Part shown: piece by piece, positions 1 through 10,191 of the stretch
Layout of the letters: every line of letters starts with the position of its first letter
Position numbering within the stretch: position 1 is the first letter of the stretch
IMG/VR virus record: IMGVR_UViG_3300020137_000034
Location: 1 to 27,242 of that record
Direction: 5' to 3' (one strand)
Source: a virus
Lineage: Duplodnaviria; Caudoviricetes
Length of the DNA stretch: 27,242 bases
Notes under the pieces: model-generated
Seen by the model: only the letters and a program-made list of their open reading frames with translations
Told to the model about the DNA's origin: nothing
Databases searched by the model: none
Position numbers and translations under genes: made by a program

Positions 1-1605
1 GCCCAGGGCACCACCACCACCGAGCGCCGCAAACCCGGTGCCAAGAGCGCCAGCTGCCCCGACGACTCGCCCCGCCACGCGACGCCCGAGACTGGCCGTA
101 CCGGCGCCTGCGGCGGCGGCTTCCGCCCGTGTCGCCGTAGCCACGCCAGCTCCCGCTCCGCCAATGCCGCCCGGAAAGTTGGTGACGAACACCGGCACTA
201 CACCCGTGGCGGCTTCGAGAGCCTTGCCTTCGGCGACGCCCGCAGCCACGCTGGCACCACGGCCGAGCAAATTCTTGAGCAGGCGTCCGCCTGGTCCGGC
301 GGCCCGCGCCAGGCGGTAGAGACCATACGCACCGGCTGCACCGACAGCCGCGACGCCGCCATAGGACACCGTGCCGGCAAAGCCGCGATGCTTGGTGGCC
401 AGATTGCCGATCGCGCCGCTCAGCTCATCCGTTTTCTTGATCGCACTGGTGATATCCGACAGCAGCGGATCGAATAGCGAGGCCAGCGTGCTGTCGTTCG
501 TCGAGGAGAGCTTCTGCAGCTGGGCGTTGAGACCCTTCGCCCAGGTGTCGTTCTGCTGCTCCAGCCCAGCCTGCTGGCTGTAGGAGTCCTTGATCTCCCA
601 GTAGCTCTTGACGCCCGGCATGCTGGGTGCAATCAGCTGCGTCACCGCCTTGCCACCGGTCTGGCCAAACAGCAGGCCCAGCATCTTGTTGCGCTGTTCC
701 TGCGTCATCTTTTCGGTGCGCTTCTGTATCAGCGCGATCGACTCGTCCAGGCCAATGAAGTTGCCCTCCTTGTCATAGAAGTCGAAGCCGGACTTCTGCA
801 TCCACTTGCGACCGCGATAGCTGCCGCCTGTGACGCGCGAGAGGAACTCGCCTAGGTCCGAGCCCGCCTCTTCACCCAATGGCGCCAGTGCTTTCAGCGC
901 GATCGCCGTCGACTTGAGGTCCATGTTGCCGAACATGTGCGCGCGGCTGCCCACCTGGTCCAGGTTGTGGAACAGCTGCGTCAGGCTGCCCGAGCTGGTC
1001 ACGCTGGCGCGGGCGATGATGTCCGCCGCTTCGCCGTACTGGTCCGGGCGCAGCTGGAAGCTGTGGCCGAGGTTGGCGATGTCCATCGCCACCGTGGCCG
1101 GATCCACGTGTTTGGTCTCGGCCAGGACTTCCGTCATGTACGCCGCCCCGTGGCGCACCAGCTTGCCCTTGCTGTCGTACTTCTCCAGGATGGCTTCGAG
1201 CGGCACGCCACCCTGGTACAGCTCGCGTGTCACGTCGGTGACTGCGGTGGCGCTGTACTTCAGGTGGCTGGCGACCTCGATCGAGTTGTCGCGCACCCGC
1301 TTCATCTGATCGGCCAGCAGCTTGGCATTGGGATGGGCGCCCTGAAGGATGCCCTCCACGCTCAGCAGCGATTCCTGCAGCTCGGCAGCCTTCTCCACCG
1401 CCGGCTTGAGCTTGTTGTACCCGTAGTCGGCCACCGCCAACGATTTGAGACCGGCCGACGTGTGCCGAATCATCGCGTCGTAATCGCGCTGCATGGCCTT
1501 GGCCTGCGCGCCCGCGCCGCCGATCTCATTGCGAAAGCGCCGTAGCACTCCGCTGAAGAGATCGACGGCGCTGATGCGCATGGCCAGTTTCAGGGTGTCG
1601 CTCAT
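1..1605 (-). CDS. Tail tape measure protein (3' part runs off the window)
   Basis: ATG at 1605 (MSDTLKLAMRISAVDLFSGVLRRF...), frame open to position 1, Ala/Gly-rich and helical, directly after the tail chaperone; not in the ORF track because no stop is in the window. Confidence 0.9.
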   Translation of the reverse strand, partial: MSDTLKLAMRISAVDLFSGVLRRFRNEIGGAGAQAKAMQRDYDAMIRHTSAGLKSLAVADYGYNKLKPAVEKAAELQESLLSVEGILQGAHPNAKLLADQMKRVRDNSIEVASHLKYSATAVTDVTRELYQGGVPLEAILEKYDSKGKLVRHGAAYMTEVLAETKHVDPATVAMDIANLGHSFQLRPDQYGEAADIIARASVTSSGSLTQLFHNLDQVGSRAHMFGNMDLKSTAIALKALAPLGEEAGSDLGEFLSRVTGGSYRGRKWMQKSGFDFYDKEGNFIGLDESIALIQKRTEKMTQEQRNKMLGLLFGQTGGKAVTQLIAPSMPGVKSYWEIKDSYSQQAGLEQQNDTWAKGLNAQLQKLSSTNDSTLASLFDPLLSDITSAIKKTDELSGAIGNLATKHRGFAGTVSYGGVAAVGAAGAYGLYRLARAAGPGGRLLKNLLGRGASVAAGVAEGKALEAATGVVPVFVTNFPGGIGGAGAGVATATRAEAAAAGAGTASLGRRVAGRVVGAAGALGTGFAALGGGGALG

Positions 1606-1609
1606 GGTG

Positions 1610-2037
1610 TCAGTCGTCGGTTTCCGTGTTCGTCAGGGTGCGCACGAAGAGGTCGAACACGCTGCGCGGCAGGTCGGTGATCTCCCGGTAACTCCAACCC
1701 GTCCTGGTGCCAAGCATCAGCACCTGGAGGTGCTGACCCTTCAGCTGCCGGGTTGCGCGTTTCCCTCTTCGTCGACCTTGTCCATGTCCGCGCAGAGCTG
1801 GTCGAAGTCGGCGGGGTGCAGCTTGCGGATCAGTGCCAAGTCGATCGGGCCGGACAGCTCACCCAGGCGCACCAGCTGGCGGCCGAGCAGCGCACCCTTG
1901 AACGCCAGGCGCTTGGTGACCGGCGCCTGGTCTTCTGCATCGAACAGGTCGGCCGTAGTGGCCTCGCGGATCTCGTAGTCCTTGTGGACCGCGTCGCCCA
2001 CTTTCAGGCCATGCTTGAGCGTGTTCTTGATCGTCAT
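1610..2037 (-). CDS. Tail assembly chaperone, -1 frameshift-extended form (lambda gpGT-like)
   Basis: G GGA AAC slippery heptamer at 1765-1759; the -1 frame reads KRATRQLKGQHLQVLMLGTRTGWSYREITDLPRSVFDLFVRTLTNTETDD* and stops at 1610, just before the TMP ATG. Confidence 0.75.
1741..2037 (-). CDS. Tail assembly chaperone (Mu gp41-like)
   Basis: MTIKNTLKHGLKVG...IREATTADLFDAE...LHPADFDQL; lies between tube and TMP; ATG overlaps the tube stop. Confidence 0.85.
   Translation of the reverse strand: MTIKNTLKHGLKVGDAVHKDYEIREATTADLFDAEDQAPVTKRLAFKGALLGRQLVRLGELSGPIDLALIRKLHPADFDQLCADMDKVDEEGNAQPGS
1759..1765 (-). other. Programmed -1 ribosomal frameshift site GGGAAAC
   Basis: X XXY YYZ heptamer in the correct phase (GAG GGA AAC) near the end of the chaperone ORF. 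Confidence 0.75.
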
Positions 2038-2411: not shown

Positions 2412-3884
2412 TCAGACGATGAACTGGATCTGCTCGGCGAAGATCCGCAACTGGTTGACCAGGTTCGGGCTCGACAGCACGTTGGCGCGGTTCGGATCGT
2501 TCGGATCGATCTCCACCACCAGGTCGCGCTTGAACTGCTCCAGGTCCTCGATCAGCCCCGCATCGAGCAGGTCGCTGGCCAGCGCGATCAACTCGGCGCG
2601 CAGAATGGTGGGCGTGACGATCGCCTGGCCCGGCGCCGGCTTGACCGTGTCGCCGGCGAGCTTGTGCCGCGGGAACTTGCTGGTGATGCGCGCGCGGGTG
2701 GCGTAGCGGATGTAGCTGAGCGTGGCGATCGTCTCGACGTCCAGATAGCTGGTGTCGGGCAAGTCGAACGCGTTCTGCTGGAACATCGTCACCTGGCGCT
2801 CGATCAGCACGTTGCCACCCGCGTCCACTTTGTGGGTGGCGATGCCGCTGTGCAGCTGCAGGTTGCGCTCCTCGAACGTGAATCGGTCGGCCGGCGCCGG
2901 TGGCAGCAGGCCGGTAAGCGCCAGCGTCTGCAGGGGCCGCGCCGGATCGATCGCCAGCGAGGCCGCTGCCACCGCCGCGTTCACCGCCGCCCACACGTAG
3001 GGTGGCTGCGGTGCCTTGGAGGCGCCGATACAAGTGACCAGGTGCGAGTTGCGCCCGAGGCCGAAGGTATCGGTCTCCGCCGCCGTGCCGCGGAACGCGG
3101 TATAGGCCACGCCGTCGATCTGGCGCATGCCGCCGAAGCGGCTGACCAGTTCGGTCTCCAGCGCGGTCAGGTTCGCCGCGTCGGTGTACGGCATGGCGAT
3201 CGCCTGGTACCAGTCGTCGCCCATCGCAGCGATCGCATCGGCCACGTCAGGGTTGGTGGTGCCGCCACTCATGGCCGTGATGGTCAGCTGCAATCCTGCC
3301 GGGGTCAGCTCGCCGGTGTAGTAGTTGATGCGCAGGTCCAGATCGTTGCCGGTCAGGCCCTTGTGACGCGCGGTGAGATCGACCTGACTGGACGTCTCGC
3401 CATTGACGGCAGCCGTCAGCGGCAGCGCGGTATTCGCCTGGATGGCCGCGGCGGTGGCGGTGGCCACCGCATCGGCATCATCGCCAGCGGCGACGCCCAC
3501 GGCGACCTTGGTGCCGGCCACGTAGAGGTTGAGCGTGCCGTTCTGCGTTGCCGCACCGGCGAAGGCCAGCTTGCCGGTCGCCGCCGCACCGGCCCCGGCA
3601 TCATCCAGCGCAATCGCCACCACGCGGGTATAGCTGTTGGCTTTCTTCAGCGCCTTCAGCATCGAGGCGAGCATCGAGCCGCGGCCGAAGGCCTGCTCGG
3701 CCTGGTCCGCGCCCAGGATCTCGGTCGGCACGCCGGCCGCCACGGTGCCAGCCGCCAGGCGCTGGCCCAGCACCAGGATGGTGTAGCTGTCGCTGGCAAG
3801 GCCGGACTGCGCACGCGTGTTGTTGAACTCGACGTAGGCAAGCGGGACACGGACGTCGCTGGGGATGGTGTCGAAGCTGATCAT
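2412..3884 (-). CDS. Tail sheath protein (Mu gpL-like)
   Basis: MISFDTIPSDVRVPLAYVEFNN, FGRGSMLASM, DPARPLQTL, FPRHKLA, DPNRANV motifs; 490 aa. Confidence 0.95.
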   Translation of the reverse strand: MISFDTIPSDVRVPLAYVEFNNTRAQSGLASDSYTILVLGQRLAAGTVAAGVPTEILGADQAEQAFGRGSMLASMLKALKKANSYTRVVAIALDDAGAGAAATGKLAFAGAATQNGTLNLYVAGTKVAVGVAAGDDADAVATATAAAIQANTALPLTAAVNGETSSQVDLTARHKGLTGNDLDLRINYYTGELTPAGLQLTITAMSGGTTNPDVADAIAAMGDDWYQAIAMPYTDAANLTALETELVSRFGGMRQIDGVAYTAFRGTAAETDTFGLGRNSHLVTCIGASKAPQPPYVWAAVNAAVAAASLAIDPARPLQTLALTGLLPPAPADRFTFEERNLQLHSGIATHKVDAGGNVLIERQVTMFQQNAFDLPDTSYLDVETIATLSYIRYATRARITSKFPRHKLAGDTVKPAPGQAIVTPTILRAELIALASDLLDAGLIEDLEQFKRDLVVEIDPNDPNRANVLSSPNLVNQLRIFAEQIQFIV

Positions 3885-4091: not shown

Positions 4092-4631
4092 CTACTGCGG
4101 CAGGGTGTCGGTTTCGGTGATCTCGATCTGGCCGTCGGCTGGCGCCACATCGATGTCTTGATGGAACGTGGCGAACACGCCCAGCGTGGCCTCGTCCGTC
4201 GCGGGGCTGGAGTCCACCTGGTCAAACGTGACGGCCCACAGCGCCACGCCGAGCTTGTCGATCTGTCCCGCATACAGGTTGCGGGCGTCGATGTCCGTGG
4301 GTGCCGAGAGGCTGTCCTGGCCCCAGGTGTTGTCCTCGATGCGCCGCTCAATCGCTTCGGCAAGAGCCAGGGCGCCGGCATCGCGCTCGAGCTGGGGCGC
4401 GTCCTTGGTAATCACGAACACCAGCCACCGACCGCGCAGCTGCACCATGCCGCCGCCCGGGCTCACCGGCTTGAAGCCCACGCACGCCACCAGCACCTGC
4501 GGCGCCTTTACGGCAAAGCGCTGGATCTCGGCGGCGCTGTCGAAGCGGCCGCGATGGGCGACGACGGTCACGCCCGGCAGCGCCGCCTTCAGGTCGTCAA
4601 CGATCGCCTGGCGCTGGGCAAGCAGGCTCAT
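4092..4631 (-). CDS. Mu gp37-like (DUF1834) tail terminator/completion protein
   Basis: ATG at 4631 overlaps the upstream stop; HRGRFD, ARNLYAGQIDKLGVALWAVTF; synteny. Confidence 0.75.
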   Translation of the reverse strand: MSLLAQRQAIVDDLKAALPGVTVVAHRGRFDSAAEIQRFAVKAPQVLVACVGFKPVSPGGGMVQLRGRWLVFVITKDAPQLERDAGALALAEAIERRIEDNTWGQDSLSAPTDIDARNLYAGQIDKLGVALWAVTFDQVDSSPATDEATLGVFATFHQDIDVAPADGQIEITETDTLPQ

Positions 4632-5095
4632 GCCGCGCGTCCCTGCAGGTGCTGGTCGAGCCAATCGCTGGCCACCGCCGCGAGATCCATGCGGTTCTCC
4701 TGCGACAAGCCGAGGTATTCGCGCGCCGGCAGCCCTGGCTTGCCAACCCCGGCGCCGCCGAAGTTCTGGATGGCGGCATAGATCAGGTTGGTGCCCACGT
4801 CCACATCCTTGCCCGTCATCTCGACCACGTGCGTCATGCTCTGCAGCAGATGGTTCTCCGACTGCAGCAGGCTGTGCCCGGCGTGGCGGGTGGCGGCGTA
4901 GCTCTCCGACCAGGCTGGCCAGGCGACGCCCTGCGGCGTGGTCTTCTCGTCCTGGATACGCCGCTGGATCTGCGTCACCGCCTCAGCACCCAGGCTGTCC
5001 ATCAGCTCGCGCTTGTCCATGTCGATCACCGCGCTGACGTGGCGCTGCACGTCAGCGAGGTGATCCAGCGAGAACTGGAGCCCGACGCCGCTCAC
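4628..5095 (-). CDS. Phage virion morphogenesis protein (Mu gpG-like)
   Basis: PQGVAWPAWS, VGTNLIYAAIQNFGG, LPAREYLGLS motifs. Confidence 0.9.
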   Translation of the reverse strand: MSGVGLQFSLDHLADVQRHVSAVIDMDKRELMDSLGAEAVTQIQRRIQDEKTTPQGVAWPAWSESYAATRHAGHSLLQSENHLLQSMTHVVEMTGKDVDVGTNLIYAAIQNFGGAGVGKPGLPAREYLGLSQENRMDLAAVASDWLDQHLQGRAA

Positions 5096-8424: not shown

Positions 8425-8457
8425 GGGAAGCATGTTGCCGATGGCCCGCGGTGCCGG

Positions 8458-8479
8458 TCAGGCTGAAGCGCTTCAGCGG
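8458..8479 (-). promoter_or_regulatory. Late-promoter activator site upstream of the head operon
   Basis: TCAGGCTGAAGCGCTTCAGCGG, identical to 17336-17357; contains the 16-bp palindrome GCTGAAGCGCTTCAGC. Confidence 0.75.
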
Positions 8480-8683
8480 TACGTCGTATCCGCCGGGACG
8501 TCGTCAGCATGCCGCCCAACGCGGCCACTGACAAGCCGTGGACGCCCCACAGCGGCGGCGAATGCCCTTTGAGGCCATTTAAAACCCGTTTAAAAACGCC
8601 GCGCCCCCTCCGGGGCATACCCTTGCCGTCCCTCGGGTGCTGCGAGGCGCTCACGGGCTCGCAGCGGCGCACTGGCGAAACCG

Positions 8684-8712
8684 CTGTGAAATCGCCACGG
8701 CGAGCCTATACT
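8684..8712 (+). promoter_or_regulatory. Putative sigma70 promoter antisense to the late operon
   Basis: TATACT at 8707-8712, placed 6-7 nt before the 5' end of a long stem; -35 is weak. Confidence 0.5.
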
Positions 8713-8718
8713 GGCGCC

Positions 8719-8824
8719 GCTGTAGCCGCGAAGACTGGAAAATCGCCGGGCCAGTGGTTGCTTCCGAGCTTCCATGTGGGGGTGCCAGGTAACGACCTGG
8801 GTGGCGTCCCACCGTGGCTACAGT
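8719..8824 (+). ncRNA. Candidate ~105-nt multi-stem small RNA convergent with muF
   Basis: Terminal stem 8720-8730/8813-8823 (11 bp with a G-U pair that forms only on the + strand) enclosing hairpins 8734-8755 and 8776-8812. Confidence 0.55.
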
Positions 8825-10191
8825 GCATCACCCTCATCCAGGCGCACCATGCCGGGCTGTTCCAGGTTCGCCCGCGCCACGATAGCTCCACTGCGGATCG
8901 CATTGATCGCCGCGCCATCCTTCGCAAAGTCGATGCGCACCGCCAGGCGGCCGTACTGGCCATCGTCGCGTTGCGCCGGCTCGAACACGTACAGCAACGC
9001 AGGATGCCGGCTGGCACTGTCCCAGATCACCGCGCGCGGGTTGGCCAGGTGGCGGACCAGGTCGCGCACGTCAGCGAGAGTCAGCGACTTGCGCCCCTTG
9101 CGCGCCTCGGCCAGCAGATGGGGCACGTCGCGCTGCTCGATCGTCAGTCCGGCCGTTGCCGGCGTTACGCCCACCTTGCGATGCAACGCGTCGACGATCT
9201 GGGGGCTCAGTGCGCCGATCGTCCGACGCCCTCCCACGCCGCGCAGCTCGCCAGCGGTGATGGCATCCACCCACTCACGGTAAGCGTTCTCAAGATCACT
9301 CTGGATCACCGGCAGCGTCTGTGCCATCGCCCGCGCACCGGCCGCCGCCGGTGCGCGGTTGACCGCCTGCATGAATTCCTGCGCCACTTGCTGCCGTCGC
9401 GCCGCCTGGCCGGGATTGGTATCCCAGCCGGGATCGATGCCCTCGGGTATGTGTTCGATCGCGCCGGTGCGCTTGTTGATCCACTCGCGGAACTTCGGCT
9501 GAGGCGTTTCCAGCTTCACCGGTAGCAGTTGCTGCATTCGCCGGCCGGTCGGCAGGCCGGTGTCCTGGTCCAGCTCGGCCGGCGCCAGCGGATCCTGATA
9601 GCCGCGGTCGCGCAGACGACCGTATTCCACCCGGCTCACCTGGCGCACCCAGCATTTGCAGCCCCAGCCGTTGGGCGGCATGGCCCAGCGCCAGAATTCG
9701 TCCTCGATCGGCAGTAGCGTGCCCGCCCAGGCGACGTGCTGCGGGCGGTGCCGCGCGCTCGGTCCCAGCAGGTAAAGCAGGTAGGGGTGCGTGCTTGCGG
9801 TGCGCTGGATGCGCTCCCACTGGCCGGCCTGCCGCGCCGTACGCAGATTGGCGTTGTAGATCGTTTCGAGCCGCCTGGGTGAGCCGAGCTGCACTCGGCC
9901 CACCTGGCCCGTCAGCGGGTCCACCGCCCGCTGCACTCCCCACCAGCCGCGCTTCTGCAGCTCGGGCGTCACCTGCTTGGCCCACTCGCGCAACGTTGTG
10001 CCGTTCTTCAACGCACCGGCCAACGAATCGCGCATGTCGCTGAGCATGTCCAGCTGCGTCATCTTGGCGACGGTGAACGCGCCCGCATGCTCCTCGCGCC
10101 AAACATCACGGTAGTCGAAGCCCACCTTGAGCTTCTTCGCCTGCAGGTAGTCGAGCGCCTCCTGCGGCACCGGGCCGGTGGTGAAGCCCAT
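8818..10191 (-). CDS. MuF (gp30) minor head protein with C-terminal extension (possible BECR-fold nuclease)
   Basis: EEHAGAFTVAK, GSPRRLETIYNANLRTA, HRPQH, PPNGWGCKCWV, IDPGWDTNPG, followed by ~170 aa of extra C-terminal sequence. Confidence 0.9.
   Translation of the reverse strand: MGFTTGPVPQEALDYLQAKKLKVGFDYRDVWREEHAGAFTVAKMTQLDMLSDMRDSLAGALKNGTTLREWAKQVTPELQKRGWWGVQRAVDPLTGQVGRVQLGSPRRLETIYNANLRTARQAGQWERIQRTASTHPYLLYLLGPSARHRPQHVAWAGTLLPIEDEFWRWAMPPNGWGCKCWVRQVSRVEYGRLRDRGYQDPLAPAELDQDTGLPTGRRMQQLLPVKLETPQPKFREWINKRTGAIEHIPEGIDPGWDTNPGQAARRQQVAQEFMQAVNRAPAAAGARAMAQTLPVIQSDLENAYREWVDAITAGELRGVGGRRTIGALSPQIVDALHRKVGVTPATAGLTIEQRDVPHLLAEARKGRKSLTLADVRDLVRHLANPRAVIWDSASRHPALLYVFEPAQRDDGQYGRLAVRIDFAKDGAAINAIRSGAIVARANLEQPGMVRLDEGDAL

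Follow-up and report, generated by a model that had tools for sequence, protein, structure and literature searches.

A predicted tRNA-like small RNA converging on the muF stop codon of a Mu-like provirus is a candidate antitoxin to a predicted RNase tail

Immunity genes of polymorphic toxins are known to outlive broken toxins, to occur as orphans, and to trail displaced remnants. For the MuF polymorphic toxins, the accessible text of Jamet et al. (2017; PMC5576092) describes a small ORF, a co-oriented protein gene, after 89% of 191 MuF toxin genes; that text leaves many proteobacterial tails, such as Ct_MAD, unexplained and mentions no RNA partner. PBECR and MuF-C domains are defined as predicted RNases in the accessible text of Iyer et al. 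(2017; PMC5512222), and an RNA partner is named neither there nor in the accessible text of a 2026 BECR preprint (10.64898/2026.08.28.747851), from which the words "ncRNA" and "RNA antitoxin" are absent. Our search of the literature turned up no experimental finding on the RNase activity or toxicity of a PBECR domain.

RNA antitoxins are known from the type III systems (ToxIN, CptIN, TenpIN, and AbiF), in which the RNA lies upstream on the same strand, often as repeats that the toxin cuts, the toxin is free-standing, and the role is anti-phage. Mimics of tRNA are also known, among them the Y RNA YrlA and the tRNA-like domain of tmRNA. Here we describe a locus on a 27,242-nucleotide stretch of phage DNA (the window, meaning the whole stretch that was analysed) at which a MuF protein with a predicted RNase tail appears to be partnered by a structured, tRNA-like RNA.

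The window carries a Mu-like provirus whose minus strand encodes transposase, MuB, Mor, terminase, portal, muF, protease, capsid, and tail genes. Its MuF protein has the N-terminal MuF domain and is encoded in a temperate-phage head module (portal, muF, protease, with a Mu transposase). The locus shares with the MuF polymorphic toxins, as the accessible text of PMC5576092 describes them, the MuF head domain with a swappable tail at its C-terminus, a place in the packaging module, a small downstream partner, and displaced cassettes (seen at locus L143), but the partner there is a protein gene and here it is an antisense structured RNA. No small protein immunity gene lies directly downstream of muF in the window: the next recognised gene, the protease, is 385 nt on, and the interval holds only unassigned overlapping frames. 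Unlike in Mu, gene G is not found downstream of muF (8434-8817); a 155-aa ORF further down (4628-5095, minus strand) resembles virion morphogenesis proteins by eye. An A+T-rich stretch containing TTTAAA (8578-8602), also present in many Mu-like relatives, occupies the position of the annotated gyrase cut site in phage Mu, and the minus strand has a terminator-like hairpin at 8617-8602.

Table 1. Features at the 3' end of muF, in window coordinates
Feature	Position	Strand	Remarks
Predicted cloverleaf RNA	8718..8825	+	108 nt; ends inferred from outer helix
Candidate -35, weak	8684..8689	+	CTGTGA, 3/6; 17 nt ahead of -10
-10 box TATACT	8707..8712	+	Under threshold of consensus promoter scan
P1 5' arm, acceptor-like	8718..8730	+	Pairs with 8813-8825, 13 bp, two G-U; without 3' CCA; two-sided change in 12/12 modelled pairs
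P2 hairpin, D-arm position	8734..8755	+	ACTGG/CCAGT, 8734-38 / 8751-55; two-sided change in 4/5 pairs
Kiss strand CGCC, P2 loop	8744..8747	+	Pairs with GGCG 8803-8806; outside model R1
P3, anticodon-arm position	8756..8773	+	GCT-TCCG-AGC, 8760-69; 4-nt loop, no anticodon loop; other stems in relatives
P4, T-arm position	8776..8812	+	GTGGG(G)/(T)CCCAC, 8776-81 / 8807-12; stacked directly on P1
P5 hairpin CCAGGT-AACG-ACCTGG	8785..8800	+	Inserted in P4 loop; missing from some relatives
Kiss strand GGCG	8803..8806	+	Partner of CGCC 8744-8747
muF	8818..10191	-	457 aa; Phage_Mu_F domain at residues 53-182, plus C-terminal tail; stop within RNA 3' arm
MuF-C/PBECR domain, predicted BECR-fold RNase	8821..9306	-	Pfam MuF_C E 1.8e-5, below cut-off
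His/basic helix motif, H358 to K368	9088..9120	-	Invariant in alignment; presence tracks RNA

The predicted RNA (Table 1) is single-copy in the window. Every helix that a first-pass annotation of this DNA had named is present where it had been placed, including a 13-bp outer helix with two G-U pairs, the 3' arm of which covers the muF stop codon (8818-8820, minus strand). The promoter proposed in that annotation stood in part. Its TATACT box is there, and because a -10-like hexamer keeps a near-fixed distance in 15/15 family members, we predict that the RNA has a promoter of its own; the -35 in the window is weak (3/6), however, and a consensus scan of the window returned neither a promoter nor a plus-strand terminator. 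In four of the 15 members (L016, L031, L035, and L037), TTGACG stands 17 nt before the -10. The annotation had also read the fold as favouring the plus strand, and here the folding energies (z of -2.2 on plus versus -1.3 on minus), the -10 box, and the G-U pairs agree; an RNA from the minus strand was rejected on these grounds. The sole available RNA run (metatranscriptome X1, contigs only, unstranded) has flat coverage of ~3-5x over the element and the adjacent late genes, and this signal is possibly DNA.

Folding energy alone is modest, and the RNA is lifted above chance because of comparison across loci. Protein and pattern searches yielded 15 distinct close homologues of the element. Across nine homologous loci, a 47-nt core is 94-100% identical in pairwise comparison, while the 100 nt upstream are 49-59% identical and the last 150 nt of muF 58-89%. 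Covariation in homologs, which the annotation had named as a check on the fold, is present: among 29 aligned matches to our model R1 (drawn from 49 chosen loci, with one match a chance hit), pairing holds in 93% of cells and two-sided changes occur in 27 of the 36 pairs, counts that are inflated by kinship among the sequences and come from an alignment fitted to nested helices. None of 500 shuffles reached that level of pairing, and slid registers pair at 36-52%. Overlooked in the annotation was a loop-loop kiss of 4 bp joining the P2 loop to the P4 loop region. It reads CGCC/GGCG in the window and CGUC/GGCG, CGUC/GACG, CGGU/GCCG, CGGG/CCCG, or CGCU/AGCG in relatives, with pairing kept in 6/6 sequence types (permutation p of 0.006, for six hand-picked representatives). 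At the level of predicted structure, the covariation and the new tertiary contact show selection on the RNA rather than decay.

The arms of the RNA follow the order of a tRNA: an outer stem, a three-base linker, a D-position hairpin, an anticodon-position arm, a two-base linker, and a T-position helix that is stacked on the outer stem. The kiss occupies the place of the tRNA D/T-loop contact, and the whole has tRNA topology, that is, a cloverleaf with a tertiary contact between the D and T positions. Like tRNA (RF00005) and its mimics, it has four arms, its acceptor- and T-position helices stack, and the loops at the D and T positions are in contact; its relatives keep true D- and T-loops. Unlike tRNA, the window RNA lacks a 7-bp acceptor with a CCA end, a 7-nt anticodon loop, and a T-loop; its outer stem has 13 bp, and a Watson-Crick kiss serves as the D/T contact. 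No Ro60 or RtcB neighbour was found among the window ORFs scanned. Rfam 15 returned no family at gathering threshold on the window (best local E of 0.93), ARAGORN called no tRNA there, and blastn of the element against named phages gave no match. A likeness of short words to SAM-I and c-di-GMP riboswitches was dropped because Rfam had no match.

Among relatives, the anticodon-position arm is freely swapped and has no 7-nt loop, and some carry the P5 insert while others do without it. At the muF stop, MuF-C genes further removed show shapes close to canonical tRNA (RF00005 scores of 31 bits at L003 and 35.6 bits at L139), and the class runs from Rfam-level tRNA matches to the derived form of the window. 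Consensus folding of eight tRNA-like members recovered the T arm alone, with the L136 row at wrong coordinates. RefSeq labels the Escherichia coli form "tRNA-OTHER". One E. coli variant occurs in 173 of 5,426 E. coli genomes; 165 records have it with at least 95% identity, and likewise 165 have the matching tail with at least 90%, as counts not matched row by row. Four E. coli variants have near-constant D and T arms and differ in the anticodon-position arm. A second sub-family (L051, L053, L057, L058, L064, L065, and L076) has the same kiss beside another tail type.

Other RNAs were noted at comparable positions. Antisense at the muF stop of L147, two different tRNA-like RNAs stand in tandem behind one -10 box, and ARAGORN calls one of them tRNA-Ile(AAT). 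Two further conserved RNA families, unmatched by R1, lie at PBECR2 stops (L163, L165, L166, L168, L169, L172, and L174; L162, L178, and L184). PBECR3-type genes L129, L187, L189, L191, L192, and L194 have a further RNA fold with common GGACGT words, and CTCATAC in three of them.

The tail of the window MuF belongs to the MuF-C/PBECR group (PMC5512222, accessible text), keeping the group's residues H358, R364, and S434, and is predicted to have a BECR fold, albeit with weak structural scores. Across 44 aligned relatives, Pfam matched MuF_C in 27 and PBECR3 in 11. The structure model of the tail is confident (pLDDT 94.5). Its best structural match is BrnT (Z 5.3, rmsd 3.9, 76 aligned), followed by the colicin D tRNase (Z 4.8, rmsd 3.2, 84 aligned) and the CdiA of NC101 (Z 4.8, rmsd 3.7, 85 aligned) and then by ParE/RelE/YoeB. 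Toxins of the BECR fold thus head a list that is coherent, though each score is weak (Z at most 5.3); Foldseek and a PDB sequence search gave no match. The residue at the presumed catalytic positions varies among tails. Mu gp30, the MuF-C prototype, is among the forms that differ in having neither the helix motif nor the RNA.

To compare tails with RNAs, we collected muF loci in two ways, with the N-terminal domain (the best 80 of 583 matches, plus 10 named phages) and with a tail profile (17 of 401 random genomes with a match, 20 loci). RNAs were called with a family-blind detector that looks for a -10 box and then a closing helix ending at the stop, with a call at a score of at least 20; neither folding z-scores nor the bare length of the closing helix told the classes apart at muF stops, but the -10 plus helix detector did. 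Eight long loci were dropped before counting: those with unrelated tails (L026, L028, L083, L089, and L093), those with broken frames (L141 and L143), and one at a contig end (L101). Among these loci, which include the best 80 of 583, the detector found RNA beside 30 of 43 His-bearing tails versus 2 of 14 tails without His (p of 4e-4, with the cut-off of 20 and the His rule both chosen after the data were seen). After R1 matches and reading by eye, which changed six calls, the counts became 41/44 versus 2/14. Two false calls made by a T-loop regex (L060 and L149) were overruled. In the protein-only sample of 401 genomes, RNA was present by reading at 15/15 loci with a kept motif or a broken frame and at 0/3 degenerate loci. 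The annotation had also proposed checking whether the RNA occurs only with long MuF proteins: with frameshifted L064 left out, the detector called the RNA at none of 42 short MuFs, again among loci including the best 80 of 583.

The detector also fired at 12/28 PBECR2 and 6/8 PBECR3 loci, families not used earlier (6 of 42 loci ended too soon). In three PBECR families, the corresponding position is repeatedly taken by RNA folds that are unrelated to one another. These results bear on the view that the element is a decayed tRNA gene, or an RNA unrelated to MuF that sits in a permissive gap. Relatives do score as tRNA and carry the RefSeq label, and family members occur at other phage and chromosomal sites. 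Nevertheless, we consider such an origin improbable: covariation with a new tertiary contact speaks of selection, many of the 42 short-MuF loci have the same kind of gap and all lack the RNA, and the folds that recur beside the three PBECR families are unrelated.

Individual loci illustrate the pattern. The MuF of L044 is 85% identical to that of the window and has lost the basic residues, and seven bases of the RNA 3' arm are left. Helix and RNA are both lost in L056, L059, L061, and L062, while their relative L058 has both; both are likewise absent at Mu gp30, which runs straight into gene G, and present in E. coli relatives. There are exceptions. His is kept without RNA in L004, L044, and L060, each with another conserved-site change (a post hoc reading), and RNA stands beside the His-less tails of L132 and L137, both with a Lys/Arg-rich helix. 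At the L060 stop, the -10 box is left and the RNA body gone, with a tail that keeps His and has one Lys-to-Gln difference, possibly a recent loss of the RNA. Across many phages, then, the RNA and an intact tail appear mostly to be kept or lost together. On the tree, RNA presence needs 9 changes; in six independent pairs the two move together in 4-5 and oppositely in 0, and because the sign test is not significant (p of 0.06-0.25), the lineage-corrected link is suggestive only. Nor is the pairing strictly cognate, because L013 and L050 have near-identical tails and different RNAs. Common to both RNAs are only P2, the kiss, and P4, which points to this surface as the recognised part, with loose specificity.

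The RNA is also found where no intact tail accompanies it. It persists beside frameshifted or interrupted tails (L064, L141, and L143), and orphan RNAs are listed at L017, L018, L032, L039, L041, L125-127, L152, and L154. Of these, L032 and L041 lie between gam and gemA and L039 after the tape-measure gene (the L032 and L039 records are fragments); L017, L018, L125-L127, L152, and L154 are chromosomal. R1 matched in 4/151 genomes of an order sample and 4/151 of a class sample, with the centre genome counted in each, and among six new R1-positive genomes a single RNA is beside muF (L153). No cognate tail was found in four of the five orphan-bearing genomes searched, all drafts and not including those of L152 and L154. 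Provirus G003 has an orphan of the window RNA family and a different RNA at its own muF. The orphans are highly conserved. At L143 (1097-1481), a tail and its RNA come first, then a remnant of another tail (its last 30 codons) with a second, different RNA, the layout of displaced toxin-immunity cassettes. Tandem RNA pairs occur in L125, L143, and L147 only.

Several orphans have neighbours worth recording. A single type I-E-like CRISPR repeat stands directly after the L018 orphan (RNA 2934-3051, minus strand), and the end of a CRISPR array directly before that of L152 (RNA 1501-1620, plus strand). By eye, the orphans of L125 (two in tandem), L126, and L128 are upstream of a DNA methyltransferase-like gene of a restriction system, and that of L127 is inside an integrated element with an AlpA-like gene. 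At L130 (1194-1293), the RNA is 200 nt off the stop, pushed away by the insertion of a small ORF that contains Cys and His and has a ribosome-binding site of its own.

Comparison among loci establishes the predicted RNA fold, its tRNA topology, its place at MuF-C/PBECR stops, and its co-retention with the His/basic helix. Because the RNA and the RNase-like tail are mostly kept or lost together, the RNA is likely the antidote in place of an immunity protein, and we hold with modest confidence that it is an RNA antitoxin acting as a tRNA decoy against the predicted RNase tail of MuF. Among the roles that the annotation had suggested, neutralising the MuF extension is favoured by the comparative evidence (the RNA tracks intact tails, outlives broken genes, and occurs as orphans); guiding it is rejected because the variable parts of the RNA are all base-paired and leave no free variable segment.

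The proposed antidote would work as follows. The RNA would be transcribed on the plus strand from its own predicted promoter. The tail domain would be an active tRNase-type toxin, as its fold and Iyer et al. (2017) suggest, and MuF would take it into the head and then into the next cell, as Jamet et al. (2017) hypothesised. The RNA would imitate the elbow and acceptor of tRNA without an anticodon loop or CCA end; because elbow and acceptor are mimicked and these cleavable parts are absent, it may occupy the enzyme, binding and blocking the predicted RNase. Lying on the opposite strand under a predicted promoter of its own, it would not depend on late transcription: the producing cell would make it, as would a cell that the DNA has just entered and, given a complete promoter, the lysogen. 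That the lysogen is protected is plausible for relatives with both -35 and -10 intact.

Were the RNA and tail to work together, co-loss would be expected as well. The MuF tail could bind, package, or mature the RNA, which would itself be the effector, for example an injected tRNA decoy that absorbs host anticodon nucleases or other tRNA-binding defences. Co-loss fits this equally well, the basic helix that tracks the RNA could be a binding surface, the presumed catalytic residue varies, and orphan RNAs stay so highly conserved that the RNA could have a job of its own. We nonetheless think cooperation rather unlikely. Conservation is lowest in the anticodon-position arm, the part that an anticodon nuclease would read; RNAs outlast the domain, whereas an intact domain is seldom found without an RNA; and the cassette layout of L143 is typical of immunity genes.

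The antisense position raises another alternative, namely that a convergent transcript or 3'-end structure silences, terminates, or destabilises the muF message in a type I-like manner. The RNA overlaps the end of muF by 8 nt, and since no plus-strand terminator was found in the window, transcription could run on into muF. Few bases are complementary to muF, however, and in several relatives the element closes with a T-run or is followed by a terminator; the L130 RNA lies 200 nt away behind another ORF, and orphans are far from any muF. Antisense action also needs no covarying tertiary contact, and we regard control of muF as an improbable function.

As an antitoxin, the RNA invites comparison with type III systems. 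It is structured with a pseudoknot, like the small RNA of AvcID, which the accessible text of PMC10511110 proposes to inhibit a protein toxin by binding. The ToxIN-like layout of an upstream, co-transcribed RNA, usually in tandem repeats, does not apply in the window, where the RNA is single, downstream, antisense, and convergent, derived from tRNA, and paired with a predicted toxin that is fused to a virion protein in a phage late operon. The best reading of our analysis is that the RNA would work like a type III antitoxin while departing from the known type III layout. The DUF3800, drum, and skipping-rope motifs resemble our class in that many unrelated RNA folds accompany one protein family on either strand, according to the accessible text of Weinberg et al. 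(2017; PMC5737381), but the protein family is another one and the window RNA matches no Rfam 15 model. Literature on AcrIIIA1 and HnrS, in its accessible text, proved unrelated to the element. No description of an RNA-MuF tail pair was found in the literature searched, which was mostly outside the subscription journals.

A broader proposal, which we offer tentatively and consider possible but doubtful, is that temperate phages have converted tRNAs into RNA immunity genes against virion-borne BECR RNases, a class both large and unrecognised. Tail and RNA would move as a cassette, and bacteria would retain captured copies close to CRISPR and restriction loci. Together, tail and RNA would act as a dead-man's switch: an injected RNase would stall or kill the cell unless the incoming genome survives to transcribe the RNA, with no translation needed.

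For the MuF field, the pairing offers an answer to an open point: why proteobacterial tails have no immunity protein of the usual sort, and whether such tails are toxins in the first place. It also suggests a function that can be tested for the elements called "tRNA-OTHER" next to muF in Mu-like prophages. If true, it would join polymorphic toxins with RNA antitoxins, reveal a tRNA remodelled stepwise into a new pseudoknotted fold, and supply many natural protein-RNA pairs.
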